DNA from: Ruditapes philippinarum
Lineage: Eukaryota
Direction of reading: 5' to 3'
DNA: 64,000 nt
Assembly: GCF_026571515.1 (NCBI RefSeq)
Contig: NW_026865113.1
Coordinates: 62,001 to 126,000 of the forward strand
Shown here piece by piece: positions 1 through 34,662 of the stretch (positions are counted from its first letter, which is position 1; every line of letters begins with the position of its first letter). The notes beneath the pieces are model-generated. The model worked only from the letters and a program-made list of their open reading frames with translations. It made no database searches and was not told the origin of the DNA. A program made the position numbers and the translations under genes.

Positions 1-971
1 CCGTCGATGTAGAGGGTATCATAGGATATCCATGAAGTCTTGCCTTGTTCCCGGGCTGCTTTCATTCTTGGTAAAAGTCTCTTCCTTTTATCGACTACTT
101 CTTTCGGCAGTTGTTCATTTACGAAGAACGGTGTACCCATAAGCGTTTTCCATTGTTTCCTTACGAATTCTTTCTCTTTGTAAAGAGTAAACTTTGCTAC
201 AATATTGCGATATCCACCATTTCTATTATGTCCCATGCGATGCACTCTTTCAAAAGATAATTTATCCACCTGATCTTGTGCAATTTTCATTTTGTCAACG
301 AGAAATGATCTCAACTTTACCTCCGTGTCCTCGTTTTTCTCCTCAGGGGCCTCTGGGATATTGGTAAAGACGAGGTTATTTCGCATTGATTGAGCCTGTA
401 AGTAGGTCACTTCGTTATGTAGGTCATCTTTCTGTTTTTCTAGTGATGATAGTTTGCTTGTAGTTTGTGAAAGCACGAAGTCAATAGATTCCGTTTTATC
501 TTCCACAATGGTGATTCTTTCATTCATAGTTGTGCTCATGTCATGTAGTTTGACCCATATTTTTTTTAGTTCTTGATCAAAATTATCAACTTTTCTTTCA
601 AGATTTTCAAGACATTGAAGTTTTGAATCCACATTTGTAATTTTAGTGTCAAGTTTCTTTAAATAGGATAAAATATCATCATTGTTAGTTTCCATCTTTG
701 ACTTTGGCCTACAATTTTCAGAGTTTAACGGTTTATTTTCCGTAATTGGACATTTTGTGTGATATAGTGTGGGGTCAAATACACTGTCTTCAAGATTATC
801 TTTTTCATATAAAGTACTATTGGCTTGATTTAAAACTTCACTCAGTAATAATTGACTAGAATTTGAACCAGAATTTGACCTGTACCTTCCCGCCTTTAAT
901 GTGTGTCCATTGTTATCTCCTTCACTGCTATTTTTCCTTTTTTCAGTCTTATTCCTTTTTTTATTCCCCAT
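1..971 (-). CDS. LINE retrotransposon ORF1p (coiled coil + L1-ORF1/Tnp_22-like RRM); runs off the window start
   Basis: ATG at 971, open frame to base 1 (no stop, so absent from the ORF track). MGNKKGIRLKKRK..., coiled-coil LKKLDTKITNVDSKLQCLENLERKVDNFDQELKK, then QSMRNNLVFTNIPE, FERVHRMG, RNIVAKF, VNEQLPKEVVDKRKRL, WISYDTLYIDG, the typical LINE ORF1 RRM/CTD motifs. Confidence 0.9.
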   Translation of the reverse strand, partial: MGNKKRNKTEKRKNSSEGDNNGHTLKAGRYRSNSGSNSSQLLLSEVLNQANSTLYEKDNLEDSVFDPTLYHTKCPITENKPLNSENCRPKSKMETNNDDILSYLKKLDTKITNVDSKLQCLENLERKVDNFDQELKKIWVKLHDMSTTMNERITIVEDKTESIDFVLSQTTSKLSSLEKQKDDLHNEVTYLQAQSMRNNLVFTNIPEAPEEKNEDTEVKLRSFLVDKMKIAQDQVDKLSFERVHRMGHNRNGGYRNIVAKFTLYKEKEFVRKQWKTLMGTPFFVNEQLPKEVVDKRKRLLPRMKAAREQGKTSWISYDTLYID

Positions 972-1116
972 GAAATTTTATCACAAGTTCACAAGTTCAA
1001 CACTTTATAAATTCCAAATCAAATAAGAACTTTATAATAATTTAAATCCAAATAAATCCATTTTTTTCAAACCAGATTTTTTTATCGACTTTCTCACTTG
1101 ATCACGTGACTTCTCT

Positions 1117-1118
<2 letters not shown>

Positions 1119-1151
<33 letters not shown>
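1119..1151. repeat. T33 homopolymer next to the LINE 5' end
   Basis: Directly visible; ~150 bp upstream of the ORF1 ATG on the minus strand. Confidence 0.9.
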
Positions 1152-1156
<5 letters not shown>

Positions 1157-4100
1157 GACATGAAAAATATGCATGTAATATTACTATATTATAATATTAG
1201 TCCCTTTTGTTACTATTTGTATATTTGTTGCAATTATAACAGACTAATGATATTTCTATCATCTTCTAGCTGTTAATGACTACAGTAGTGCACAGTACAG
1301 TCATGTCACATAACATTTACAAGTCTTGTTTGTATTCAATATAATTACTTTCCTTACCAGGTAGGCATCAGTGAAAGCATTTTTATATTAAAAAATTTTC
1401 CCCTCTTTTTAATTATGGACAGTGCATAAGATAAGTATAATTATGCAAAAAAATGGTTTACAAAACATTCGGAAAAAATCTACAATAGTACTTAATCTGA
1501 ATATAATATGACCTGTGCGTAGGAATAATTTGGTAAGGTATCTGTAATGAGCACATTTTTTTGCGCGGAGCTTCTCACAATTGCTGCATTGCAGCAACAT
1601 TTGTACTTGTATGATATTGACTTATTTGCTTTGATTGGCTAAAGGCAGGCGGTGTACAGGTAGAACTATTCAAATCTTGTCATTTGTATATATCACTGTC
1701 TAGGAGAACGGCGATAATTACGGAATGTAAGTTTATTTTTTGTTTTGCCTTCCCGGCGGCTAAGGTGTAAAATTTGTTCTCGTTCTCATTCATAAATATA
1801 TCATGACATGCTGCGAATCACCGAAGGGGAAATATGACTTTACATAAAAGAAATCGGAAGGAATTTTTAATTCCGAATTTATTTTTAGCTGTAAATCGAA
1901 GGGTTTAATTGATAAAAATCGGGTGCATGGACCAAAAAATAATGATAAACACAAATAGCTCTGTGACTTTGGGCGCGGAGCAATAAATATAGGTGAGAAA
2001 CGTTTCCTCAATCCAAAATGGACCTGATCTATCATATGCACGGTTATTTTCTTTAAATATAAATACCAAGTGCATTGTCCTATGTGTTATGGTTTTCAGC
2101 ACATTGTTTGAATTGTGTGAAAATGGCAAACGCATTTTTAGTATGTCGCACGAGACGATATAATAGACCCTTCTTAATATTACTTCATACATATTCATAG
2201 ATTTCCCAGAACGAGGCTAACAGGGCAAGCTTTTATACCTGTATGTAAACATTTCATAGAAATATGGCTGAAGCGTTTTCCTACAGTGATCGAGATCTTG
2301 ATATTGTACCATTAATTACATTCACTTTTGTTGAAAACTATATTAAATGTAACAAAAAATCTTCTTGAGATAAATCAATCAACAAAGGGTTTAAATACTA
2401 CAGTGAAGGCTATATTCAAGACCTTAGAGGTGAGTTAAAGTATATAATTATGGAAGCCTTGGAGGGTCACTTTTGAGTTTCGACTTATAGATTTATTTTA
2501 CTATTTTCTTATGACTTTTGATTTATGACTTTTGATTTATGACTTTTGATTTATGACTTATGGATTTTGTTATTTCCCACGTGCTTGCCATTAAAATATA
2601 GTAGAATATGACAACGATTCAGACGAGGTAAGTTAATTTACCTAAGTTTCCTGGAGACTTATTTAAAAAACAAAATATGTGGGCTCATATGCAAGAACAG
2701 AATGTTATTCTTATATAAGCCTTTTAAATTGATTAAGAAAAGAAAATACTTTGCTTAAATTGCATTGCATTGGGTATCCATTTTTTATTTTGATTTCCGG
2801 AACAGGGATATATAATCTCAAATTGACATACAGCGAATGAATCAAACGCTTTATTTTTTATATGGGTTCCTGTTTTAAATCCAAACCAGTCTCACATTGT
2901 TGTTTGCTGCAATTACAAGCGGTTTTCACCCGTAGTTCATTCTTCGTCCATCTAATATTGAATATAGACCAAATTATAGACCTTATTTTGACAAAGAAAT
3001 TTGTGGTTAAGAAGTTTCATGAAACATGGTATTTAAAAAACAATAAATCATACAGCTTTGAAACTTCACACACTTGTTTAGAACACGCTCTGAGTTATAA
3101 ATCTCTGAATTGCATTGTTATCAAATTATGCCTCTTTTTCGATTTTGAATTCATGGTTTAGAATTTTCATGAAAAATGGTTTCTCAAACACTATTTTAGC
3201 GATTCCTTTGAAACTTAGAACACATATTATGTGTTGATATCTAAGATCAATGACCAAGTTTCGTATGAGTGGCGCACAATTTGACATATTTATGCCCATT
3301 TTTAAAGCTAAAATGTTTTGTCAGATGGTTTATGAAATATGGTCCTATAAACCAGTTATGATATAATATTAAAACTTTATTCACTTGTTCAGTATCAATA
3401 ACTTAGGTCACATACCAAGTACATTGTATATAAACTTTTGTATACAGTTATGTATTAAGGGATTTTTTGTATTTCATTTTGTATATATATGTATTTCATT
3501 TCAATTGAGATAACACATACTTTTAATATTTTCAGTTTAAATTCTAGTTAAGCTACCTGTAGGAATTAAGGACGTGCTGTCGAATGGTTTCAACTGCAGT
3601 TGCAAGAGCATCAGCAATACATATTTGTCAAGTTTTCGGAGCCAGTTTAGAAGACTAAGAGGTTTCATGGCAAAACAGCGTTCGTTCCGAGTGGAAAGTA
3701 GTACAGTTTAGCAAATGCAAAATGTCCAAACACTAGTGATTTGGTTTTCTTCGTTATTGTCTATAGAAATATTCAGACATTTTGGAATACGAGCGTTACC
3801 TTTTCACACTTGTTTCAGACGCTCGATAATTTTCAAGTTTTAACCCCACCACTTATTGTGGACGCTTTATTGGAAACACGCAATGTCACGTTCCGCTAAT
3901 TTAATTTATACTGTACATATCTCCAATATGGTACAAAACTTGTATCGATATACAGGTCATGGTGAGACAGAGAAAAGTGTGAAAAATCATGAATTCATAA
4001 TTCTGGCTTTCATAATTTTCAGTATTTGCCCATTGCAAATTTTAAAACTTAAAAGAAAGGTATCAAAATCAAACTTTGCATGTTCATATAGCTTGGCGAG

Positions 4101-5688
4101 GCAGAAAGAAACATACTTCTTGCCATCATAGCTACATTTTAGAAAGGCCCCTTTTGTTGTTGATTTTTTTCTTCTTGTTTTTCATACTTAGATTTTGTTA
4201 AACTCATAATTATCTTAAAAACTGTTGGAGGCATCAACTTTACTGGCAGATATATCTCGGCGAGACAGAGTGCATTGTGTTGTTAACAAAACTTTTGATT
4301 ATAATATTTAATCGTTCTTCTAAGTTAAACATTCCCTTTTTCGACATGCTGTGTGTGGGGGTTGTGTTAATTACGAAAGACTATGATATTTCCATTACAT
4401 ATAAAGTCGGTTATTCTTCGAAAAAAAAAACGAACTTGTGGACGTTATTTGATATATACATTATAGTACAATGTATACAGTTTCTTAAAGTTAAATAGGA
4501 ATTTTTTAGCAGGAGACTGTGTTTGTTTTTTTTTTTCTTTTGAACATTTAGAAATGAAGAAATAACGCTTTGACAATAATTTTTAAAATATTGACTTCAA
4601 TAATAATACACTCTAGCGGCGCTAGTTTACCTAAATTATATTATGTTTTTAAAAGCTTCGTTAGATAACTCATGATTTTCTTAGTTTTTTATCAGTAACG
4701 TATTAACGATGTGTTGTTTTGTAGAAAAATTGCATGTATATATGTCTCCTGTGACGTAAATACTTGATGTTTTTGTTGATGGCAGTGTTTATTTTTAGCT
4801 GTTCCTTAGTGTTAGCTTATAAGTAAGGCATGTGTGCTATTTTAGAAAAAAATGCTTACCTCTGTATTTCTTATCTCTGTTTTTAAATTTAAATATAATG
4901 AAGCTCAAATTCAGTTTGTTTTGCCTATCTAATATATTTTGTTTTCTTATATGACAACAATTTTGTTAAACAAATAAAGCACGGTTGTAGAATAAAAAAT
5001 GTTTGTTGTTATCTGTTTAAACGCATTTATTCCAAACAATTATTGATAGCTCTGCCAACCTGTCACGGTCAAGACCGTGAGGTAAAAACCTTTGGTAGAG
5101 TGGTCTCTCGGTAGAGGTATATTTAGGTAGTCTGTTGAGGGAGTTGGGTTTACTTCTATAGTGATTGCTATTCTATTTCTACTTTGCTCATTTCAACCTC
5201 TTACTTATAATTTTAATGGAACACTATCTCTACATAGATAAATAAATTGTCAACAAATGAGGAAAATGTGTTTTTATCATTCAGGACCAGATTTACAATG
5301 ATAATGTAAATAAGTACAAGTTTGAAGTAGAAATCATCAAGAGTTTTCAAGTCATATTTGTGTCAAAACTGTTTTCTAAATTTAATTTTATACCTATAAA
5401 TTTTCTTCCAACGGATAGAAAATTCCGTATTATGTTAGTGACAAATACGGAACCATATATGGAAATGCCGGATTATTTTTGACATTGGTTCCGATCTTAG
5501 CTGTGTCTTACGTAGCATTAGGAAACGGGAACCAAAATTATAAGAGGCGTCGCCGGTTTTGCATAAATTACGTATTCATCCGTCAGTCATAAATTTATTT
5601 TTTATTTTCTGAAATTTCTTATAGAAGTGTAGTTTAATGAAAATTATTTTTACTAATAACGAAAAGGTATATAATAAAAGTAAAATTA

Positions 5689-5834
5689 TGTTGTAGTAGC
5701 TTTCTGAGGCAATGCATTTTTCTACTTGCAACATTGGAAAAATTGATATCTCACTCGACCTTCTGTCTCGCGAGATATCAATTTTCCACCGCTGCTTGTA
5801 GCAAAATACAAAGCCTTAAAAAGCTACTACTACA
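5689..5834. mobile_element. Palindromic (fold-back) MITE-like element inside the IS3EU
   Basis: Arms TGTTGTAGTAGCTTT..GAGGC / GCCT..AAAGCTACTACTACA and AAAATTGATATCTC / GAGATATCAATTTT around a short loop. Confidence 0.65.
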
Positions 5835-6676
5835 AAATATTCCGTACATATATCTCCTTTATTTTAATGTATTATAATGCGTAACGCTTGTACCCTCTTA
5901 AATAGTCAACACGGAAAAATAGCGTACCAGTCAACCGTGACTAAAATCAACAAGGAATTAAATAATCTATTTAAAGATGTAAAATGTTAATAAAAATTTG
6001 TAATAAAGCTACACATCCAGAAAATAGCTAAGAACTGTTTAATCTGAATAAAAAAATTCGTTATTTACCAAGAATAGTTTATTTACTTCAATACTTAATG
6101 CTGCAGACGGCACTTATAAATGAATGTTCCGAATTAAAACTTATATACATATGATTTCACATTAACAATTGATGTTGATAATTCACGTAAAAACGATCAA
6201 CTATGATAAAAACATATGAATGCAATAATTCTAATGCAAAAATGAGGCTGGTGGCTAAATGTACTTGTAAACATCATATGACTTCAACACCACTCTCGGC
6301 TGATGTGCTCCCTTGCGTTTGGTGATTGTATCACAAATTTGCTTATTTTACATTAATCTAAAATCAAGTAAAATTAATGTTTATACCAAGGCAAAGAGTA
6401 ACAGCAAATGGCAAAAGTTATAAGTCAAAAGATAAAAGTCATAAGTAAAAAGTGATAAATTATAAGTGAAAAGTCATAAGGCAAAACCTAAAAAAAAACA
6501 CGAGAAAATAAGTCAGCATTTATTACAAAGATCAATTACTATTTTTGAAATAACAATCATATATATTCATTTTAGATACCATAATACATCCTATAAAGTA
6601 TGGTTGCTATTTGTTGCGAATGAATAAGACGTTTGAATCTAATTACACATACTTGAAATTTCACGTATAACTTATA

Positions 6677-6796
6677 TGTCACGGTACGAATCTATTCAGT
6701 AGATGATGTGCAATCTCGGTCGGGACAGAGCTAGCCCTGTAAGGGGTTCCGGGTTCGAATCCCGGTATGGCTGCATATCTTTCTCCCCCTGTGACA
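6677..6796 (+). mobile_element. Short tRNA-like LTR remnant (TRIM-type)
   Basis: TGTCAC...GTGACA inverted termini (TG..CA), internal B-box GGGTTCGAATCCC, followed by TTTGGC (PBS-like TGG). Confidence 0.55.
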
Positions 6797-6806
6797 TTTG
6801 GCACAT

Positions 6807-6863
6807 TGGAAAGTGTCCCTGCCAGTCACGCGGGAGACCGGGGTTCTATTCCTAGTCGGACAG
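6807..6863 (+). pseudogene. tRNA-Asp(GTC)-derived fragment (5' truncated, degenerate)
   Basis: TGGAAAGTGTCCCTGCCAGTCACGCGGGAGACCGGGGTTCTATTCCTAGTCGGACAG matches the 3' two-thirds of eukaryotic tRNA-Asp. Anticodon GTC at 6825-6827; B-box mutated; 5' acceptor/D arm missing. Confidence 0.75.
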
Positions 6864-8139
6864 CCGTTTTGTAACCAGGGCTTGATAGAAGAGATACAAC
6901 CAGAAGTCGATTCATATAGTGCAGTTAATCTCGTAATACTTATGCCAAAAACAAAAAAGAAACACTGCAAGTATTTTACGTAAAAAGTTACAAAATTGCA
7001 CATACATATATTGTGATGCAAAAACTTTACAAATTAATATTTACAGGCTGCTGAGTAAGGACCATTAACTTGTACAATAAATGTGTTTAGATTTGATTTT
7101 TTAAATAACTTTAGGAAGATTCCCACTACACGTACGCTTTTCGTACAAAAATACATGCAAATACTGTTTAAGAAATGACCCGTTAAGGTATGACCATCCT
7201 AATGCATTACGTACCTCCAATTCAAGAGTATTTACATTAGTTGCATGAAATCAGAGGGTTGTGGGTTCAAATCCTATAGGAGCCAACTTTTTTTCCTTCA
7301 TTTTTTCTTTTGACAGTATTTTTGTATTTTTCTAGCTATATTAAGATGGAAAAATATGCTCGTTTTCTATTATCATATTTTTTTACAGATATTAATTGCC
7401 TAATTAATGCTAAAAAAATCTAAGAGCAAATTACAATTATAACATTTTCAATGCTTTATATATTACAAACTAGCCGATAAAAGCCGTCCATATTTCACAT
7501 AATGAATCAATATACTTCTAGAAAGATTTTAGCAAACTTTGATACAAGCCCTTTGACTAAATGTAATTTTAGTGATTTTTTAAATTTTGAATGATATGAT
7601 AAAAATGTTCAAATTGTGGGGTAGAGAAACATTTCCATGCATATTTCTATCGTGTCGAGAATAGTCATGCATTTAACATGCATAGTTTATTACTAGAATG
7701 TTATTATTTGCATCTAAACAAACAACACTTGCAAAACATGTTTAAATGAGATTACACGGATATTTTTTTAGACTTTCAATACATGTATTTCATTTTAAAA
7801 GCCTTTTTAATGTATATGTTCTGACTCATAGTAATGCCAACAACTCCAAATCCGTACGGTAAATTTTGCTTAAATTTTGCATACAGGCGTCCTTTAGGTA
7901 TACCATTACACAAAGTTGTCAATTTTACAATGCCTTATAGTGCAAATTAGAGTGGTTATAACTTAAACGATAATTTACAAATATATTGTAATTTGCTCAA
8001 TATTTACAAACCAATATCTTAAAACAACCATATAATGAAGTGAAATCGTAGACTATCGTCTTTATGATTTTAAAACATCATTTTTTTGAAACTTAGTATT
8101 AGTCGTTTCAAAGCGTATTTATATTAAATCTATTCTCAA

Positions 8140-10018
8140 AATTAAATCTTTCAAATCGGTACACAGTTGTAGTGCTGAATCAGCGTCTAATGGCATCTGT
8201 AGATATGGCTTCAGAAGGGGTGCTTATTCTATGAATTCCTCACATTGTCTTCTTTGGCGTGAAAACATGTTCTTTGCAAATATATACGTCTCTCAAGTTA
8301 ACTGCATTGCCGAAGTCGTGAGTTTCATACAGACCAGGTACTAAAAACAGTGTATCAGGTTTACCACAAATAACAGAAGAACTTTTTTGTTGCCTTATTT
8401 CATGTGCAATCCGGTCTAACTCGGTTTGTATGAGGTCCATGAAGCAAAATTTTAAGTTCTCACATTGTATCGGATACAGATAATTAAATACACAAGTATC
8501 GCGTAAGTCTTTGGAAAAAAAAATCCACCAATTGATTCCATTTTTTCTCGTAATGTACACCTCCACTTCTCAATGCGTTGGTTAGATGTGCTTTTTCCAG
8601 CTACAAGGCTTCGAGTACCAACTATCGGATCTGTAGAATCGTGTCTGAAGTATTGTTACAATAGTAAAGCAATGCAGTTTTCCGTACCAACATCACAACC
8701 TAGTAATTTGGGTGAGGGGGACTTGATAATGTTCATTAAAGGTGTCTAAAAGTATCTTGCAATAAGGTGTGGGTCGTTATTTGAGTCCAAAACCTCTAAC
8801 CATGTTATTTTTCTACTATACCCATTCACAGCACCATGGATATAAAATCCTTATGGTTTAAGTTTGTCTTAACCGTCCATATGTCATGGCGTAGTATACG
8901 CGTCGGCATAAGCGATGAGCTTTCCGCATCTCAATACCATCCGGATCAAGCGCTCTCATTATTTCCATGACGTCGTCTCCCTTGACGTACATGTGGTAAT
9001 CCTGCATTAACCTACGCCATATTGTACGGTATTCTATGCGTTGTCCATTTGTTTGTATTTCTCTGTTTATAACACCAGACACAGTCTCAAAAGGAGTATA
9101 TATTCCATTACGCCGTTTAAAATTAAGCGTTTTAAAAAAAGTCTATTCACTGTACTAAATGACGTCGTAATGCCATGCTGTACCAGAAAGTACTCTATTA
9201 TCAGCAGAGTTTTGTTTGTTATAGATGTTGAGGGTAGGTATCTTGGCACGGTAGCTTTGGTAATGCTGAACAGTATAATGATGAAGACACAGATCAACAT
9301 CAAGGTTTTCATCCTCGTTACCTTTTGTCCAGTAGTTGTGTCTGAAATAAGAGTTTATCTTTTATCTAAATCTTTATACATTCATATTATATAAAATGGG
9401 TAAATCTCTTAGCTCCGTTTTTAAAGATAGATAGGTGCGAAAAAAATATTTTAAATGCTAGTAGGATATTTTGTTCTAACTGGTTCTATATCTACGTTTA
9501 TTCTTAAGTGTTCTTTTCTCAATTGTTAAAATATACAACAAAATTAGACATTGATGCTAAATGCAAATGGTGCTCGATAACAATTTTAAGTTAACTTTGT
9601 ACTTGTGTGTATGAACATAGCACTTGCCGTTCTTTACTGATTCCGTGTTAGCTCAATAAAATGCTGAATTGCGATACATGTTTAATACTGTGCACCATGC
9701 CATTTTAAGACGTAAAACTTGTATTCCCCTTCTACTTGTAAAACAGTTATTTGTTTGTTACTCATGGACAGATTTTGTGATGAGGACAAAAAATGTATAA
9801 GCACTAATATAATGAACATATTTAGAACATAGAAGATTGTACAAAACACACAGTCACACTTGTGGAATTAAAGTCTGTGATATGTTACCACTATGGGATT
9901 ATATCAAATAATATTAAATTCCCTCCTTAACACATCCTCTCCTCCATTACAAATCTGAATGAAATTATTTAAAACGTTTATAAAACATACCTGAAACCAA
10001 AGTTGCTGCTTTCAGCAT
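8140..10018 (-). pseudogene. Decayed IS3EU (integrase-core DDE) transposase
   Basis: Fragments across frames: IEYF..LVQHGITTSFSTVNR; YRTIWRRL..RALDPDGIEMRKAHRLCRRVYYA; HMDG*DKLKP*GFYIHGAVNGYSRKITWL..SNNDP; CDVGTEN; GKSTSNQRIE; ENLKFCFMDLIQTELD. Multiple stops and frameshifts. Possible first exon 10018-9991 splices in frame to 9341. Confidence 0.85.
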
Positions 10019-11918
10019 TTAGAGCACGTGTAAAATGGGTTAGCCAAAAGTCATAAGACGTAAGTCACAAATCAAAAGTCAAAAGTCGAAAGTCAAAAGT
10101 AAAATATCCGTAAGTCGAAACTCAAAAGTGACCCTCCAAGGCTTCCATATATAATATTTCCAAGCTATTTCTCATATTCCTAGTTATTATAAATTTGCAA
10201 CTTATACAAATATTACATGTGTTATCAGTTTTTTATTGCTAACCCAAATTGTTGGTCAAGTGTATAAGCAATTAACTGATAATAGATGTAAACAAAAGGA
10301 TGCTGAATTCCTGTACCATACTTCCCCTAAATGTGTTGTTTAAATTTTATAAAATATGTTAATTCACATTGTATTACAGTGTCAAAAATTATTGATGGCT
10401 GTCAAGTAACTGGTAAATGTTACAGATCGCAAAGAAAGAATGAGCAGCCTCATCAAGTAAAGGTAATATTTTATTTAAAAATATCACATCCCCTGTCTTA
10501 AACATATCAAGGAAATGTCAGTACTATCACATGGTGGTGTTTTAAGCAATATAATAACAAATTTATTTTGTAAAGAAAGAAATACAAAATGCTATATAAT
10601 GGCAGTATCAAATATTCAAAACATACATAATCATATTTATGTAATAAATGTATTTATACCTTGTATGTAACCAGTGATAATCATTTTATTGCAGATATCA
10701 TTCAAATCTAAAGGAGAAGATGAAGTGTCATTTGCTCATTGCACTTGTCCAGTGGGCTTGACTGGATTATGTGGCCATGTTGTTGGAACCCTGTACCAGC
10801 TGGCAAATTACAAATCATTAGGGTATAACGCACTTCCAGAAGATGTTGCCAGGACAAGCCAGCCCCAGACATTCCATGTACCCAGAGGAATGAAAATTCA
10901 AGGCAAGGCTGTACAGGACCTTGAAGTAAGAGGTTATTCGGGAAAGGCAGCAGCAAGTAGTAGCACTTCTTCAAACATTCCAAGAAATATTCAATCAACT
11001 TTATACAATCCAATCCGGGGACAAAATATTAACTGGAATGAACATGTTGAGATATTCTCTGCCGCTGTACCAAATATGCTGATGTTACCAGCTATGCAAG
11101 CAAAAGATTTTGAAATGGTAGATACCAAATTTGGAAAGGGTCTGTTTTAAGCTACCAACAAAAACTGGATTCTGGATATATTATTAATGTATATGACGGA
11201 GTTGAATTTCCACAACTGTCAGCATCAAGTTTTATGTGTAATTCATACAATGTTGTTCTAGACGAAAAAAAATCAACAAGCCTCGAAAACTTGAAACTTA
11301 CCATGAACGAGTCTGCAAGATTTGAAAAACAAACTCGATTACAAAGTCAAACTCCGATGTGGTTTAAGATCAGAAAAAACAGATTGACTGCCTCCAAAAT
11401 TGGAGAAATTTACAAACGGAAAAAGGAGCCGTCAAGCTTGGTACAGCGGTTGAAATCGACCCGACGTGTGACAACAGAAGCCATGAGAAAAGGGTTAGCT
11501 TCTGAGCCAGCAGCGGCTAATGCATATTCTGTACAAAAATCAAATGTAAACATCTACCCATGTGGAGTTGTTGTTAATGTTTGGGCACCTTGGTTAGCTG
11601 CAAGCCCTGATCGCAAGGTTTACAATACTGCAATGACACCACCCTTTGGTCTTCTTGAAATAAAGTGCCCACAGGTTTCTAGTGTTTTGGAGGCATCTTA
11701 TTTGCAAAAAGATGCAACAGGGGCATTAAGATTAAATAAGAATCATATATATTACTACCAAATTCTTGCACAGCTGGCGGTGACAGGATTACAATGGTGT
11801 GATTTGTTTGTCTGGTGTACAAATGACAGTCATTGTGAAACAATATATTTTAACACTGACTTGTGGAACAATGTAAAAGACAAAGTAGATGATTTCTTTT
11901 TCAACCATTTTATTTAAA

Positions 11919-13838
11919 TTATGACGCCCATGACTTAACAAGTGGTCCTTTAAAATTTGCTGTCAGGCATGCCACTGTCCATAATTGATTTATAGAGCCA
12001 ATCAATGACAGAGGTATAGGTGTGTCAAATAAATGGTTTTCTTTAATTCTTCTGTTCATACGTTCAATATGTATTCTCAGTCCAGCAATTTGTTCGGTGT
12101 TTTCTACTTCACTCACAGAAAATTGTCTTTTGTTGCTTAAAAAATCAGGAATATTTAATGTGGCTCCTTTTTCCTGCAGTACCTTTTTTAAAGTAAAACC
12201 TTTATCAGCCATAATATCATCTCCAGGCTCAATAAGTTCCAACAGACCTGACAATTTCGTAATTTCTACATCAGACATTGACCCTGTAAATAGTGTGGAC
12301 ACAAATGTTACCGAACCATGTGGGGCAATGCCTAACAAACATTTAACTGTTGTTGTCCCTTTATAATTTGAAAACGCTTGAGAGTTAAGCACAAGTGAAG
12401 AAGGTGTTTGTGTTCTCAGTTCAGTACAATCAATTACTACACGCGTTCGAGGATACAGTGCTTTGAATTCTTCTGGCATTAATGTTTGGATTGTATTTCT
12501 GGAAAGCCAAATTGGAATATCTGCTAGTATAAAATATAGAAAGTTTGCCCATGTTATAATTTTTCTACTAACTGTAGGTACTGAACAATTGAATCTAACA
12601 CTTAAGTCTTTTTCTAACAAACCAGCATGAAGGCGACAGAAAAACATAAACATTTCATCAACTAATTGCATCCCTCTCTTTCGACCAGCCAAGCTGATAG
12701 TTTCACTTGCTTCATAGTAAGCACTCTTCATATTTTTTGCTGATGGTTGTATTACATTGAAAAATGTTATGAAAGATAAATATGTTGGAAATCCTGTATA
12801 AAAAGATATACAACTGTCATCATTTGAAAATCTGTTTGTACCAAAACGTTCCACATCAAATTGATATTTTAACTGTTTGTTTTCTTCTTTAATTTTCTGT
12901 AATTCTTCTTTCAACTTTGTTATAATTTCTTTTTCATCTGTTATGTTAAGAGGTGTTGCAATTAAAGGCTGTTCTAATTCCATTTGTCCATCTGCGGCCA
13001 TGGTATGACTGCCATCTATGGTAGGACTGAAACATACATATATATATACGTTTTATTCAGATTTGGAAGCACGAATTGTAGCATTTCTGGTATATGTTTT
13101 TATATATATTTTTTTCAATATCATATAATCTGTCAAATGTGTTTCTTTACAATGACTGAAATTAAATAAATGTGAAAAATATACAATAAAGAAGTTTGAC
13201 AATCTTGTTTTATACCTTTCATCTGACAAAATCTTCCTCTTCAATGTTCGTCTTGCTGGTCTGTTACTACTCCAGTCAAATACTGAGGGTACAGCTGTTT
13301 TCTTTAGACATTTTCGAACTGGTGTCCATGATCGATAATCTTCTCGTGTGAAATGTTTCGAACAAACAACTGTTGTCCTATTGATCTGAAATAGTACATA
13401 AAATGACTTTTAGTTCTGTTTAGTATAAATACGGTATTGATAAAGATTCTGGAGCAACAAAAAAAATGTCTTAAATGATATACATAATTATATACCTGTG
13501 ATTTTTCTATAAATTATTAGAACAAAAGTAATTTTTTTATTTGTCAAAAACAAAATGAATCATTTAAAACACTATGAAATCCGTATATTTAAGGAGAGTA
13601 TTAAAAAAAAACTATAGTAGCTTTGTGTAAAAAAAAAGTGGAAATTTACCTTGAAATATTCTCCTTCATCTCGTCTAATTTTCACAATCCATTCTTTTTT
13701 TAAACTCACATCTTTAGGTATTTTATGAAAATGAATTGTATTATCATATCTAGAATCTGAATAACATAGTGGAACACAACAATGAAAATGTGATTTTCCC
13801 TGTAAGTTTAACACGCTTGGGCTTATCAGGTCAGCCAT
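11919..13838 (-). CDS. ISL2EU transposase: THAP + HTH_Tnp_4 + DDE_Tnp_4 (488 aa, apparently intact)
   Basis: Exons 13838-13650, 13385-13216, 13026-11919 give 1467 nt in frame. THAP: CCVPLC...W...VCSKHF...LKKTAVPSVF. Catalytic motifs VIDCTE, DIMADKGF, RIHIERMN; FYTGF motif; LSVRFNCSVPTVSR HTH. Confidence 0.92.
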
Positions 13839-14234
13839 TTTTTGTTTACATTCATGCCCTGTTAGCCTCTCTCTGGTGATGGAATGTAAAGTATGCATAT
13901 AATTTGAGAAAGGCCTATTTTGTACCTAAATGAATGAAATCTTTCTTCCTTCACTAAAAACACACAACCAAGCATAATATTGACATATTTTATCGTAGAA
14001 GTCCATATAAAATCTTGCAGAAGGACCTGTCTTTGCAGATGTATAGTTAATAAAAACGAGCAATTTCTGGATAGTAAGTCACGCGAAAACAAAATCGTAA
14101 GTTTCACGCATGGTTTCTTATATTTAAATATTAAAAGAAAATAAACGTGTATTTATAAAGTCTTAAAAGACCTTGTTTTAATTCATGATCAAATTGTTTA
14201 CTTTTGTTCGAAATAACGAATGCTTAATCAGTTC

Positions 14235-14381
14235 NNNNNNNNNNNNNNNNNNNNNNNNNNNNNNNNNNNNNNNNNNNNNNNNNNNNNNNNNNNNNNNNNN
14301 NNNNNNNNNNNNNNNNNNNNNNNNNNNNNNNNNNNNNNNNNNNNNNNNNNNNNNNNNNNNNNNNNNNNNNNNNNNNNNNNN
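14235..14381. other. Assembly gap (147 N)
   Basis: Run of N. Confidence 1.
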
Positions 14382-18600: not shown

Positions 18601-21600
18601 CGCAGGGTAGATAAAGAGCTAATGTACATATTCTCACTAATTGTGGTTTTCCTAGAAGTTGGTGGTGTATATGCCTTTGGAGCTGCCTTTGACGCTCTTC
18701 TAGAAAAATATCAAAAAGATCGATCAACTACTGCTACAGTACAATCACTCTTGTTAGGAGTTACTTTAAGCTTTGGTAATACTATCATAATCCTGAAACA
18801 AATGTTCACTTTTTTAACAACTTTGTCTTAATAGAACGTCTGAAGAATGTAACAAAAAAATGTTTCAGACTTTAAAGAATATGATTTTGGTGTTCTGTAT
18901 CTGTATGTGCTATAAGGGAAACAAGAAATTAATAGTTAAGTGTTTAAATGCCTTGTTGTCAACTATGTTTGGTTTACCTCGTAACATAACGACTTTTTGT
19001 GTATGTTTATAAATAGCTCGATCAAACCATGTCTTTTACTTGTATTTATCTCGAGGGATTTCCCTTTTCCAATATTTATTTTAACGGAATATGTTTTGTC
19101 TTGTAACGAAATTGTTTATATCCCTTCTTTCACTAGTCATTTCTCCCAACATATATTTATAAATGTCACAGTCGTAAAGCATAGATAACATTAAAAATAA
19201 CGAATACTTTCTTAAATATAAACGCGTTTGGCATTCAAAAAATATTTCAAATCAGTTTCATGCTTTCGATATTGTAGTTAATAACTCGAGTAGAGTTCAG
19301 CTTACTTAAACTGACATGGTTTATCTGTGAATCATTAATGATACCCAGAATAATTACTAAAACAATTCAATTTATAATGGTCAATTTAAAAATCAGTGTA
19401 TCTTTAATTTGTATTGGGCTCAATTACCTGTTTTCAGGTGTTATAAGTGGCACTCTAATAAGTCGATTAGGACTACCATTGGTACTTTTGGTATCGTGTA
19501 TTCTGGTTCCAGCCGGATACTGCTCTTCTTTCTTTGCCACCAGAATAGAGCATCTCTATGTCAGTATCGGCATTGTATCAGGTAGGCTCACAAAATTTAT
19601 AGAAATCAATACTTCAAAATCGAAATTTTAACATGTGAAAAATATACGGGCGCATAAATATTGTTCTGTACATAAATCGTGCCTGAAATAATTCACGGAA
19701 GGGCATCTGAGGTCCAAACAAACAAATAATGCATACATAAACAGTATTAATATCAAGCTAGGAAACTTAGAACATTATTGGTTAACCTGGTGTCTGATCA
19801 TCCATACCATATTAACACATTTTATATTTCTTTTAATTGTTCATAGCATCTATTTGTGTTGTTTATTTCTGCTAATCAAGAACAATAATACAAAGCTTGT
19901 GTGCTGCGAAAATTGAAGTGATTTTTAGTGCAAATTCGAAATAATATCTCACTATATAGGATGATCATATGATTTTGAATTCTTCATAAGCTTTAAAAAA
20001 TATATTATTTATTGTTTAAATAAGCAAAATGTAGAATGCGTAACAGAAACTATATGCAAAGCCAGTGCCTATATTTTACTATGATTCGAAATTGTTAAGT
20101 AACAAAGTTTCTGGTAAATAAATCGTAAGATAAGGCAGATTGATGTAGCTTGCAAATTTAACACTAGTATCTCCGTTTCGTTAATTATCTTATTTAATGT
20201 TGTTGTTTTTATATTTATAATTGCCACATTGAGTCTCATTTGCTTTACTTATTTGTTTTAGGAATAGGAGTTTCGTTGGCATACACCAGTACATCTATTG
20301 TAAATTGTAGGCTATTCACAGGCCAGAAGAGAGATTTGTATTTATCCATATATACATCAATCATTCCATTCGCAGGATTTGTTTACCCATACATTTTGGA
20401 GTGGTTAATCGAATCTTACGCTTTAAATGGAACGTTCCTTCTTCTTGGTGCTATTTACAGTAACAAGATTCCATTCTTGATTATGTGTTTTAGAAATCGA
20501 AAATATCTAGCAGCAGATGAAGTACCGGAGAATAATGATATTGCTGGTAATGAAACAGACGCCCCTATGAAAAAAGCAAAGAAAGGCGTAATTATAAATG
20601 CTGTTCAAAATTTTAAAAAAATGATGAATATCACATTTTCCTTAATACTCTTAGCAACAGCAGTTTCAACAGCCGGTACAAGTGGATTCATGGGTCTAGC
20701 ACTCGATATCAGCTTATGGAAAGGTTTTACTAAAACCCAGGGGCTTCTTACTTTTGTGATTTATAACATCGGAAATACTTTATCTAGACTTGTTCCGGGT
20801 TTTCTGAAACAAATACAAGGAGTTGATTTCTTGATGTTTTCATTTATCTCAGCATTAGCCGGTTGTATTGGACAGTTAACTTTCTTTTTCGGTAGCAGCT
20901 ACAGCGCTTATTTGATAGGGTTCTGTCTAACCGGTCTGTGTTTTGGCGGAATCGTTTCATCAACTGCATTGGTATTGGTTGAAATAGTAATACCTGAGAG
21001 ACTTCCTATAGCAATGGGAATAACTTCAACAACGTGTGGTATTTTATCCGTGTCAACTGGGCCGTTCTTTGGTGAGTTGAAATATGAAAAACACATTAAA
21101 AACTACTGAAATATCTTGTGCTACGGCTTTGTATTTTAAGATGAGCTCTATATATATATATATTGATATTTAAAGGCAATAAGATGGTTCTATTGTTTTA
21201 TTTCGTAGTTCTTGCGTTCTTTCTTCTAATGTTTTATTTTATAATAAAAAAGAAATGAAAAATGGAGCACAAGCACAAATAAATCAAAACTTGTTTTAAA
21301 ATTACTATTTGAACATCGAGTTTTAAGCAAAGGATAATAAGCATGATTTGTGGAATAAATATCAGTTTATTCATCGATTAATAATTCTGAACTGTCTTGG
21401 AGTCGACATGAATTGTAATGTTCACTCTCTGTCTCATTCATGCGAAGGCAGGTATCACACAGTAATCAAATGGTGTTGACAACATAGCTCCAGATTAATA
21501 CCAATTTTAATAAAAATTTGAAATGTATTTAAGTATAAAACATTGTGAAATGAACTAAGAAAGTAATTTACACATTGCAAACGTCACAATCTACGTAAAT

Positions 21601-30000: not shown

Positions 30001-33000
30001 ATGATTGAAAGGTACAAACAGTAATTCTATGCTGAAATATAAGAATAATGGCTTAGATTGAAATTTTAAATCTTATTTGTTGATTTCACCTTCTTCGAAA
30101 ATCTTTAATTAAACAGTTTGTTATTACAAAACGTACATCAATATACATGTTTTAAGCAAGGAAAGCTGTATCAAATGCTTGATAAATTCACATAATAGTA
30201 TTATAAATCGATTGAAATCATAAAATTTTCCAATATAGATTAAAGATAATAATTCAACAACATGTTTTTATCTCATCAGGACGAATAAAGAGCTTATATA
30301 CCTATTCTCATTGATTGTGGTTCTTCTAGAGTTTGGTGGTGTATTTGCGTTTGGAGCTGCCTTTGTCGCTCTTCTAGAAAAATATCAAAGAGATCGATCA
30401 ACTACTGCTACAGTGCAATCAATCATGATTGGAGTTACTTTAAGCTTTGGTACTTATACTTTCTTTGCTATCACTGACATTCACAAATATCACAAATATA
30501 CATAACTGTTATTCTGGGATGATATGTTAAGACATTTTAAGCAAATATCTTGAAACGGAAAAATGTCTAAGTCTTGAAACGGGTCGATTTCCGTTGTTTT
30601 TTGTAACTTAACTTCTTTCCTTAGCATATTGCAGGTCACCCATATTGCAGGACGAGATGATGCGTCACACAACGCGAAATGTTGTGCACCGTACCTCACA
30701 AGATTTTCTTTACGTAATGTTCATGGGGAATAAATTTGATAAACAATTCAAATGATATTATTCAAACTGGCTTATTTATGTGGATAGTTTATCGAAGTCT
30801 TCCTTTTTGTTTCCGTTACATTTATAAAATAAATGCAATTTAAGTTAGTTTTAGTATAACCACCGTCACATACAAAATTTTTACTACACATGTCATATGA
30901 ATTAATTTTATGTTCGATTGCAAGTTAAGTGCTTAATCTCTATGCGTGTATTAGATACTTTTTTGAAATATTTATTATTTTGAAAAATAACCATATTGAT
31001 TTATTACAAACATAAATTAATCAGACAAAATACTTCGCAAGTTTAAGAGATATATTGGATTCAATTTCCTGTTTTCAGGTGTTGTAAGTGGCACTCTAAT
31101 AAGTCGATTAGGACTACCATTGGTACTTTTGGTATCGTGTATTCTGGTTCCAGCCGGATATTGCTCTTCTTTCTTTGCCACCAGAATAGAGCATCTCTAT
31201 GTCAGTATCGGCATTGTATCAGGTAGGTAAACAAACGTTTAATTTTGTTTACAAACAGAACAAAGAGATCAAAATATGATGTATGTCCGGTTTTCTTTTA
31301 TATAATTACAAGTAAACTTGTGTTTATTTAATCAAGTGAAGTAATAGTATGCTAAATGACATGGCCACAGTCATGTGTATGATCATCAGATTTGTCATAA
31401 ACATTAACAGTTTTGCAAAGGAGGTTTAAATATTTTAATTGGTATATAACTACCATCGCATTTTGTTCTTTAAGAACAAATATTTTGTAGATCACTTGTT
31501 ATGATACAATTGGAAATACATGGAGTAGATAACTAGTAAGAACTAAAGCATTTGTTTAAATTAATACCCTCAAAATTCTCAAATGGGTTACCGGTAGAAT
31601 CAAAGCATTGAAGGCACTGAATTTGTTTAGGTCATAAATAGCTTAAGGTTTTCAGAGTACCTGTTTATACTGTAACATGTCATGAACGCTGAAGACAGAC
31701 CTGTATGGAAAGCCCACCAATCGTGCTAGGAATCTGACACGCTCGTATACATTCATCAAGCATGCTATGTTGTAAAGTGAAGAATATCCCATGAAAACCA
31801 TGTTAGTCGGTTGATAATAAGTCAAATATCAAGATATAGAAACTTATTAATAGTTTCCGATAGGTAAAAAACATTCAGGACTTGGTAATCATCTTGATAA
31901 AATGTTTCACCAGGTGATTACGAGATTTAACCGCCGACCAATAATGATTACATCATACTGATTATTCAATATAGACTGCAGTTCTTATCCGATCTATAAT
32001 GCTTAAGCATAAGAAGAAAGATCAACAATGCAAGGACGACGTTCGCTAAACGCTGAGCCGACACACCACAAACACACTGGTACGGCAAACAGAAGGCACC
32101 GAACCAAACACCAGATTTGTTACAATTAACAATTTAATAAGAAAAATTATCTAAAAAAAATGAAATGGGGTGATAGGGAATTAAAGGGACAAGAATGGGG
32201 TGTAAGGAAAGGGGGTATGGAACCGAAGTATTTATGATTTACGATTCGTTTCTACTTAACAGATTACATTATCTTCCATTTCAGGAATAGGCGTTTCGTT
32301 GGGATACATCAGTTCTGTTGTTGTAGTTGGCAGAATGTTCAAAGGAAAGAAAAGAGTTTTGTATTTATCAATACAGACTGCAATCAGTTCATTATCAGGA
32401 CTTATTTACCCATACATTTTGGAGTGGTTAATTGGATCTTATGGTCTAAATGGAACGTTCCTACTTCTTGGTGCGATTTACAGTAACAAGATTCCGTTCT
32501 TAATTCTGTGTATAACAAATCGAAAATCACTTACCACCGATGTAGCCTCAAAGAATGACGTAAATACAATCTGTGAAAAAGAAAACCCCATCAACAAAGC
32601 AAAGAAAAACGCCATTCTAGACAGCATTCAAAATTTCAAACAAATGATGAACATTACATTTTCTTTAATTCTTTTAGCATCAGGAGTTTCAGTGGCTGGT
32701 ATAAATGGATTTATAGGTCTTGTACTTGATATAACCTTATGGAAAGGTTTCACAAATTCTCAGGCACTTTTCACATTCGTAATCTTCAACATCGCAAATA
32801 CTTTATCAAGACTTGTTCCAGGCTTTCTGAAACAAATAAAAGGATTTGATTCCTTCATATATCCAATAATTTCAACACTATTTGGTTTTATTGGACAGTT
32901 ATTATTCTTTTTCGGTAACAGTTACTCAGTTTTTATGACAGGGGTATGTCTTACCGGTCTGTGTATTGGCGGAATAATTTCATCTCAATTATTAGTATTG

Positions 33001-34662
33001 GTGGAAATAGTAAGACCTGAGAATATTCCTGTAGCCTCGGGACTACTTTTAACGGTGACCGGCATTATATCTGTGTCTACAGGACCAGTCTTTGGTAAGT
33101 CAAAACTCCTGTATGTAATATAAATTGTCTTTAACTGCCGCTATAAATAATACCAATATATTTTAAGGAACTCCACTGAGGTCTAAAAGCTTCAAAACGA
33201 TTTTTTTTATTTCTTACATAGATCGGCTGAATAAAGATATGCAAAATATAAGAAAGAAATATTCTCAGAAATAAATTTAAAATTGTATTTTTGTGCTACT
33301 CTTATCCCGATTTGAGTGAAAAGCGCTTGTAATGCATTTTGAAAATTGTATTTTTGTGCTACTCTTATCCCGATTTCAGTGAAAAGCGTTTTAACGCCTT
33401 TTTAACTTGGGTCATTTTTCACAATTACAATAATCATTCTGAAAAAAAAAACGGAGTGAGCGAATGATCTGAGATTTTGCACACTTGTTATTGGGTTAGA
33501 TCTACATCAAATAGAATAAATACGTAGATTGATAACAATACGATCATACTGAGCAATCCTACAAATCAATGTTTGATATTTTTTATTACAAATTAAGAAA
33601 GATATGGCACACAAGTTATTCAAGATTAGTTGCAGGTTTATGTTTTAAATATTAATGCCTATGTTTAAGATTAGGACATTTTAACATCGTTCATCGTAAT
33701 AGCAATATATGTTCACAACTTTTTATATAGATTTAAGGATTTAAAGATGTAATTGTAAATTAAGAATCATTTGCTTTGCTTTTTGACATTTCTATAAGAT
33801 GCTCGCTAAGGATGTAAGAAATCTAGGGTTCGAATCCGGTTTCTAGCAAATGAAAATAGTTTAGTGTCTTTTCAGTGATATGAACATTATTTTCAATAAG
33901 CAAGATATGTAACGAACAAGTGTGGCTGTGTTTTTTAGTAGAAAAAAGGTGTCCATAACTGTTATTTGGACGCAACCAAGAAAAATTTCATATGCATCAA
34001 ATTTAAACTGTTGTTGCCAAAAATCTAATGTTTTGTATTTTAACCATTTGTTTAAATATTTTAAATTGAATTTAAGTTTTACTAGATGCCCTGCACGGTA
34101 AACATTGTTTAAAGCAATGATAGTCATTTTGCTTATTGTGTAAGTCTAAAATAAAAATAAAGATGTAAAAAATTTCTCCAAAACTTATTTCATATTCATT
34201 TGAAAAGATTTCCTCTAAATATGCAACGTTGGCAAAACTGAAAAGTAGAGTTATTGGACACACAAAAAATAGATGGCGAAATTTAAAAGTTGTCTTGTAC
34301 TATCTTGAATGAAAAGCTGATGTCTATGTTTGCCTTTTAGAATCAATTACCCAAACTATTCTCGCTGTTATTATACTGATGTGAGCGATAATTCAAAAAT
34401 GTGATTTAAAATTGTATATATCTACTTTGATAATATATTATATTACCGACATTAATCTTTTTCTATTTGCATTTCAGGAAAGCTCAGGGATATTTTTGGC
34501 AGCTACGGTATAGTAGTTCTAACTATTGCTTGTCTACAAGTTATAGCAACAGTACTATTCTGTATTGCTTTAATATACAGGCGTATAGATACCAATAAAA
34601 AGAAGAAAATACAACAAAAAAGAAGAAACACGGTTTTCGCTATTACAGTATCGGAACTATGA
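30001..34662 (+). CDS. MFS transporter, SLC16/MCT-like, copy B (439 aa)
   Basis: Exons 30001-30011, 30280-30449, 31079-31222, 32285-33094, 34478-34662 give 1320 nt in frame; exons 1-4 have the same lengths (11/170/144/810) as in copy A. Confidence 0.9.
33279..33390. repeat. 63-bp period tandem duplication
   Basis: AAAATTGTATTTTTGTGCTACTCTTATCCCGATTT(G/C)AGTGAAAAGCG twice. Confidence 0.8.

Follow-up and report, generated by a model that had tools for sequence, protein, structure and literature searches.

ISL2EU is a group of DNA transposons described in 2014–2015 and defined by a transposase with THAP, helix-turn-helix (HTH) and DDE domains, a second open reading frame (ORF) encoding a YqaJ protein, and an AT target-site duplication (TSD) within A|AT|T (Han 2015, PMC4482050). 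The terminal inverted repeats (TIRs) of the group are 6–259 bp long and usually start with GG (PMC4482050). Here, we describe an ISL2EU (PHIS) element of the Manila clam, Ruditapes philippinarum, lying at positions 2165–13916 of a 64,000-nucleotide stretch of contig NW_026865113.1 (the window). Described ISL2EU elements (PMC4122938, PMC4482050; oyster ISL2EU-8/10/11/15_CGi, Table S2) have the same domains, a YqaJ ORF, an AT TSD, a length of ~4 kb and an animal host. The clam element departs from them in AG ends instead of the usual GG, imperfect TIRs, stop codons 1 bp apart, a broken nuclease gene and a 7.7-kb insert.

Two further systems are comparable. PIF/Harbinger transposons (Ping/Pong, Harbinger3_DR; PMC2836001) likewise have a related DDE_Tnp_4 transposase and two separate genes, but the partner is a Myb-like DNA-binding protein, the transposase has no obvious DNA-binding domain, and the TSD is 3 bp; in the clam element, the transposase has a THAP domain and the partner is a nuclease. 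In KolobokE (PMC9587614), a DDE transposon likewise comes with a lambda-exonuclease-like PD-(D/E)xK nuclease, but the transposase is of another superfamily, the target is TTAA, and the nuclease is found downstream of the transposase domain. Han 2015 (PMC4482050) states that what the extra ORFs do in ISL2EU is unknown, in agreement with a sequence-only reading of the window that preceded this analysis.

The clam element is a damaged, partly decayed new member of ISL2EU. The sequence-only reading had proposed a complete ISL2EU transposon with an AT TSD, an intact 488-residue THAP-DDE transposase, a convergent SWIM and YqaJ exonuclease gene, and stop codons 1 bp apart (11917/11919); the existence and coordinates of the element are confirmed, and each of these proposals holds, as follows. 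Without its insert, the element is ~4.05 kb long and belongs to an apparently low-copy family of the clam. The left boundary, at 2165, reads A-AT|AGACCCTTCT and the right boundary, at 13916, reads GGCCT|AT-T, so that the flanks AAT and ATT fit an AT duplication in an A|AT|T target. Ten of the 13 outermost terminal bases agree between the ends. The two ends score 68 in local similarity; random window pairs average 22.5 and peak at 51 (0/2974 reach 68). This similarity spans the common block GAGGCTAACAGGGCA and TGTAAACA and extends to ATGGCTGA, with which both genes start; the start codons lie 100 bp (nuclease, left) and 79 bp (transposase, right) inward from the element ends. The TIRs are thus imperfect yet significant and start with AG; related families start with AG, AC or GG. 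The second ORF is a YqaJ ORF and the TSD is AT, which differs from the Myb/SANT second ORF and 3-bp TWA TSD of PIF/Harbinger; two ORFs and AAT/ATT flanks likewise differ from Spy, with its single ORF and AAA|TTT target without TSD. The features of the element are as follows.

2163..2164, no strand: left AT TSD, preceded by A (A|AT|T target, the rule of PMC4482050); a contig of public run X1 ends at 2163
2165..2272, plus strand: left end, imperfect TIR, with block CCAGAACGAGGCTAACAGGGCA at 2206-2227, TGTAAACA, and nuclease start ATGGCTGA lying 100 bp inside the end
2264..2429, plus strand: nuclease exon 1; premature TGA 2366-2368 (codon 35); tblastn homologs 47-69% identical
10380..10462, plus strand: nuclease exon 2; an alternative donor would put its end at 10456
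10695..11917, plus strand: nuclease exon 3; CxC..CxH at ~10725-10799, frameshift at ~11136, YqaJ/lambda-exonuclease domain at ~11360-11791, stop 11915-11917
11919..13026, minus strand: transposase exon 3, HTH_Tnp_4 and DDE_Tnp_4; motifs DCTE 319, MADKG 392 and RIHIER 437; stop 11921-11919
13216..13385, minus strand: transposase exon 2, second half of THAP
13650..13838, minus strand: transposase exon 1, encoding the first half of THAP; start ATGGCTGA lying 79 bp inside the right end
13831..13916, minus strand: right end, imperfect TIR, with block CCAGAGAGAGGCTAACAGGGCA and TGTAAACA
13917..13918, no strand: right AT TSD, with T next on the right

The TSD is read as AT rather than TA because of an empty site in a related family and the aligned ends of relatives. 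The empty site of the insertion in locus L053, found in locus L054, is AATT, and the filled site is AAT..ATT with one extra base on the right side; Figure S1 of Han 2015 (PMC4482050) has the same pattern. The L053 element sits, with an AT duplication, in a repeat whose empty form lies near 4011 of L054. A TA-type TSD (element 2166-13915) fits equally well locally and was set aside on the related-family empty site and Han's rule. Self-BLAST found no second copy of the element within the window. An assembly gap of 147 N lies at 14235-14381, ~320 bp right of the element.

The three minus-strand exons at 13838-13650, 13385-13216 and 13026-11919 splice to a stop-free frame of 488 residues, identical to the NCBI R. 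philippinarum protein LOC132727870. Its Pfam matches (DDE_Tnp_4, E 6.9e-38; THAP, 7.2e-16; HTH_Tnp_4, 5.8e-9) all pass the Pfam cut-offs. The nuclease gene, delimited by homolog mapping, runs on the plus strand from the ATG at 2264 (exons 2264-2429, 10380-10462 and 10695-11917) and contains a YqaJ domain (E 1.4e-16). The search with hidden Markov models that had been proposed for the spliced proteins recovers THAP, HTH_Tnp_4, DDE_Tnp_4 and YqaJ; the SWIM match stays below its cut-off (E 0.097), and the CxC..CxH motif is nonetheless present. Two clear coding lesions are found in the nuclease gene, the nonsense TGA at 2366 and a frameshift at ~11136, and homolog alignments show a gap in the region of the frameshift.

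Contigs from four public runs of four studies (X1, X3, X15, X16) were compared over 1700-14230. The insert-free form is seen in three of the four runs (X1, X3, X16), where contigs join 2440 to 10148, precise empty joins of 7707 bp. Contigs of X15 and X16 (2/4 runs) have 10 letters more than the window in the nuclease frameshift region. These letters fit the frame change as well as the gap in the homolog alignments. One X1 contig agrees with the window over this region without gaps; unless X1 was the source of the assembly, the deletion is thus not confined to it. The left end occurs in dispersed copies: an X16 contig has 97 different letters left of 2160, that is, another insertion site, and the X1 contig ends at the TSD (2163). 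Copies that look intact occur in the species. Summed depth in two DNA runs is 3-167 over the element body and 330-5750 over the nested insert, and although depth is not copy number, this suggests that the ISL2EU family is rare and the insert abundant. Contigs of two presumed RNA runs retain the introns. In this copy, the nuclease was lost through a nonsense codon and a short deletion, which is ordinary decay. The copy had been called a natural nuclease knockout. It is one, and it is an uninformative one, because intact-looking copies exist in the species, nuclease-less derivatives of other families moved, and supply in trans confounds the comparison.

The pairing of the two genes was followed in 86 related loci found by transposase alignment, of which 80 are the best among at least 479 metagenome loci and six come from genome contigs. 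No related transposase was found in 35 candidate stretches of viral contigs. Downstream of the transposase, 58/86 loci have a nuclease gene on the opposite strand, and all 58 downstream nuclease matches are convergent. The other 28 comprise 21 loci that end within 1.5 kb and seven longer ones without a nuclease; one locus, L066, has a same-strand match upstream. When the loci were collapsed to 31 families, transposase and nuclease identities were strongly correlated (Mantel r 0.81; 0/5000 permutations reach it), and 21/31 families have the same nearest neighbour for both proteins. The two genes thus travel together as a stable unit, as had been claimed for ISL2EU. The correlation does not indicate that the proteins bind each other, because shared ancestry alone yields such a correlation.

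The ends of the relatives share features with those of the clam element. Among 17 elements with both ends, some of them from related families, CGAGGY, a motif picked after inspection of the data, occurs within 90 nt in 15/34 ends, compared with 24/1370 internal 90-mers. In L032, the two ends agree through ATGGCGG, so both start codons lie inside the TIR; we restrict this statement to the window and L032, since automatic nuclease start calls are unreliable in the 17 complete elements. Four loci (L022, L023, L042, L045) are intronless intact elements. ISL2EU-like transposases were also found in short contigs of an ‘Aquifex sp.’ metagenome-assembled genome (MAG; L084, with a convergent nuclease, and L085), which are likely mis-binned eukaryotic DNA. 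Four further loci (L081, L082, L083, L086; G001) lie in megabase contigs of a ‘Nitrospirales bacterium’ MAG with sparse, animal-like coding, probably host DNA in a bacterial bin.

The nuclease active site was counted in 38 loci with long domain matches, the other 20 of the 58 convergent loci having short or truncated ones. The catalytic residues are kept almost without exception (E 37/37, D 37/38, E 38/38, K 38/38, Q 38/38), and W, S, E, D, E, K and Q are invariant across 26 aligned nucleases. For homolog P0003, whose C-terminal part is 59% identical to that of the window protein, the predicted structure (pLDDT 72.8) consists of two folded portions with a low-confidence linker between them. 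Of these, the C-terminal portion matches LHK-Exo (PDB 3syy; Z 17.8, rmsd 2.3, 171 aligned) as well as lambda exonuclease (3slp, 1avq; Z 17.0, rmsd 2.9, 190 aligned), which share fold and active-site motif with the clam nuclease; both phage enzymes are without a SWIM module, unlike the clam-type nuclease. Residues 14-130 of the model match ZSWIM8 (Z 10.9, rmsd 2.7, 101 aligned). The nuclease is thus predicted to have a PD-(D/E)xK active site in a lambda-exonuclease-like fold, although a common fold alone proves no function. The near-invariance of the catalytic residues and the joint divergence of the two genes indicate that a working nuclease matters to the family. Two other domain arrangements were seen: a SWIM-YqaJ frame of 527 residues at L087:844-2424 with a PHD-like finger at its C-terminus (Pfam PHD-1st_NSD E 0.008, below the cut-off) and no transposase match within the 3.5 kb examined, and more distant YqaJ proteins (P0019-P0024) that have PF20700 and YqaJ in one chain, so that the nuclease is associated with a different domain a second time.

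DDE transposases cut and paste, THAP domains bind DNA, and lambda-type exonucleases resect 5′ strands. In the clam element, a DDE transposase and a SWIM/lambda-exonuclease-fold protein are encoded inward from opposite ends. The THAP domain likely binds a subterminal block of the TIR, and the DDE domain likely performs cut-and-paste transposition. The partner would be an active 5′→3′ double-strand exonuclease, needed by the family overall and suppliable in trans, with the SWIM module as a putative DNA- or partner-binding part. After excision, it would resect the broken donor ends, and repair of the resected donor from the sister chromatid or homolog would recopy the element, giving a net copy gain. 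The identity of the element, its decay and the family's need for an active nuclease are, taken jointly, very probably correct. The two-component reading, which had been put forward with end resection or donor-site repair by the nuclease, is plausible and partly supported. Donor-end resection favouring homologous repair and copy gain is our pick among the mechanisms, held tentatively.

Several observations weigh against this view. Transposase-only derivatives in four loci (L052, L053, L054, L072) are >99% identical with different flanks and therefore moved, and ORF2 ends before YqaJ in two families that moved as well (L081/L086 and L082/L083). The L082/L083 elements, 3.2 kb long, are 99.9% identical at two sites, with a third, internally deleted copy; their ORF2 is open (318 residues), is homologous to the N-terminal part of the nuclease over 198 columns (probability 99.1) and has no YqaJ. 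In the sister family, L081/L086, ORF2 is broken. The nuclease is thus not needed in cis, since these transposase-only and YqaJ-less copies also moved; supply in trans is possible, because YqaJ-coding relatives are present in both assemblies that hold the derivatives. The modelled structure is that of a homolog, not of the window protein, and the proposed role in resection rests on the fold and the biochemistry of lambda exonuclease. Of the two ends, the public contigs bear out the left one, and no empty allele of this insertion was among the matches listed from the four public runs. The literature found, with figures, Repbase and subscription journals outside view, contains no biochemical or genetic test of an ISL2EU nuclease. 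As a separate observation, the transposase-only elements at L052:4545-7815 and L053:4596-6927 are flanked by two inverted left-end copies.

It is tempting to extend donor-end resection to a symmetric machine, in which each TIR is both promoter and THAP site and a ZSWIM-like/resection-nuclease ORF2 steers the donor break to homologous repair, making transposition effectively replicative. The CGAGGY counts and the position of both start codons, inside the TIR in L032 and within the diverged repeat in the clam element, point this way. The transposase is proposed to co-regulate both genes, because the TIR would double as promoter and THAP-binding site. The P element offers a parallel of binding site and promoter, on which the literature search gave nothing relevant. 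The literature found, within the same bounds, is also silent on the orientation of the genes and on a TIR-promoter symmetry, and it holds no report of a Ruditapes ISL2EU. As a whole, this extended scheme is doubtful.

Other roles for the two proteins have to be set against donor-end resection. The nuclease may instead act on the excised transposon as an obligatory subunit of the transposition complex, trimming the non-transferred 5′ strand or processing insertion gaps. Strict co-divergence and the conserved active site agree with this, as do the requirement of PIF/Harbinger, a sister group, for two proteins that interact (PMC2836001) and the various accessory nucleases of Kolobok lineages, proposed to degrade intermediates (PMC9587614). 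However, the sister clade Spy has one ORF (PMC4122938), and YqaJ-less families moved. As lambda exonuclease loads at ends and is processive, such an enzyme would also endanger the element's own ends, and we consider a role as complex subunit rather unlikely. Alternatively, the essential part of ORF2 could be its N-terminal SWIM scaffold, like the Myb-like partner of Harbinger, with the nuclease domain a droppable or replaceable accessory. The open YqaJ-less ORF2 of L082/L083 would suit such a scaffold, as would the ORF2s of 354 and 169 residues without a YqaJ call in Table S2 of Han 2015 (PMC4482050) and the N-terminal part that folds as a separate domain in the model. Nevertheless, the YqaJ end is kept in 54/58 convergent pairs with near-invariant catalytic residues, and the broken ORF2 of L081/L086 means that YqaJ-less elements may be mere non-autonomous deletions; an essential scaffold is therefore unlikely. 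The difference between the two genes in the window, no lesion in the 1467 nt of the transposase and two in the ~1470 nt of the nuclease, together with the NCBI annotation of the transposase as a gene, could suggest domestication of the transposase by the host. By simple arithmetic, however, both of two lesions fall in one gene with a chance of ~0.25, the TIRs and TSD are intact, and near-identical copies occur in the species, one with another flank, which makes domestication highly improbable.

The spacing of the genes bears on a further possibility, namely that a near-zero gap was selected so that overlapping 3′ ends silence or balance both genes through antisense RNA. The nuclease stop TAA (11915-11917) and the transposase stop TAA (11921-11919) are separated by 1 bp, and with this gap any 3′ untranslated region (UTR) runs into the opposite ORF; it follows that the two 3′ UTRs would overlap, provided both genes are transcribed. 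AATAAA signals at 11914-11909 (minus strand) and 12028 (plus strand) predict an overlap of ~160 nt. Poly(A) signals were modelled in related pairs after omission of 10 near-duplicate or unusable loci, four YqaJ-less loci, and pairs without a signal or with a gap <20 bp; a class of 1-120 nt overlap was defined after viewing the data. A crude model predicts overlap in 26/38 pairs against 20.6 ± 2.2 after spacer shuffling (2/200 shuffles reach it), and strict AATAAA leaves a marginal excess (27/35 against 23.6; 11/200 reach it). This excess is too weak to bear out the antisense control that the sequence-only reading had inferred. Nor is the 1-bp spacing a built-in feature: across 54 related pairs extending to the nuclease C-terminus, the stop codons lie a median of 258 bp apart (range -44 to 2204), with a gap ≤10 bp in 2/54 and ≤50 bp in 6/54. 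Judging from these comparisons, the 1-bp spacing is specific to the clam family and convergence is general, and selection for antisense control is quite improbable. The spacing probably reflects compaction in this family, with overlap a by-product of inward-facing genes sharing a termination zone.

The clam copy itself, a decayed member of a known group, is of little importance. The real question behind it is why an exonuclease is present in ISL2EU and in some Kolobok lineages. Steering of donor-site repair by the nuclease, if true, would give a transposon-encoded route to copy gain from cut-and-paste transposition. The comparative data narrow the options, in that the active site is conserved and the nuclease is dispensable in cis. 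L022, L023, L042 and L045 make better test material than the clam copy, as does L082, a natural YqaJ-less variant.

The insert had been placed at 2449-10155. It is real, and its bounds are refined as follows.

2443..2448, no strand: left 6-bp TSD TATAAT of the nested element
2449..10149, no strand: nested IS3EU/GingerRoot-like DNA transposon in nuclease intron 1, with TA..TA ends and further nested repeats inside
8243..9142, minus strand: decayed integrase-type transposase of the nested element, with stops and frameshifts (Pfam rva_4 E 2.5e-11, stops read as X)
10150..10155, no strand: right 6-bp TSD TATAAT

The last six bases of the earlier interval are thus TSD. The arms of the nested element (49 nt) are 92% complementary and are accompanied by 14-bp subterminal repeats. 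TA..TA termini and a 6-bp TSD are the rule for IS3EU/GingerRoot (PMC10045372), with which the nested element also shares an integrase-type core (rva_4); it differs in its decayed coding region, and its putative clade placement draws on the rva_4 match to a decayed frame. Once it is removed, nuclease intron 1 is 243 bp long; because of this intronic location, the insertion itself is no proven knockout.

Further repeats lie within the nested element. A 160-bp palindromic repeat at 5682-5841, with read depth far above its surroundings, is probably a further small element. A third array of the 14-bp subterminal repeat lies in the interior, at 6399-6500, in right-end orientation. Two tRNA-like fragments at 6700-6870 have the T-loop-like sequences GGTTCGAATCCC and GGTTCTATTCC; ARAGORN and Rfam made no call for them, and over 1700-14230 the Rfam search yielded a single match, at chance level.

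Elsewhere in the window, host genes are represented by two paralogous major-facilitator transporter exons at 20198-21109 and 32260-33123 (Pfam MFS_1, E 4e-16 and 1e-14) and, on the minus strand at 59107-59547, by an exon of a Quiver/Ly-6 family gene (Pfam QVR, E 7.5e-8).

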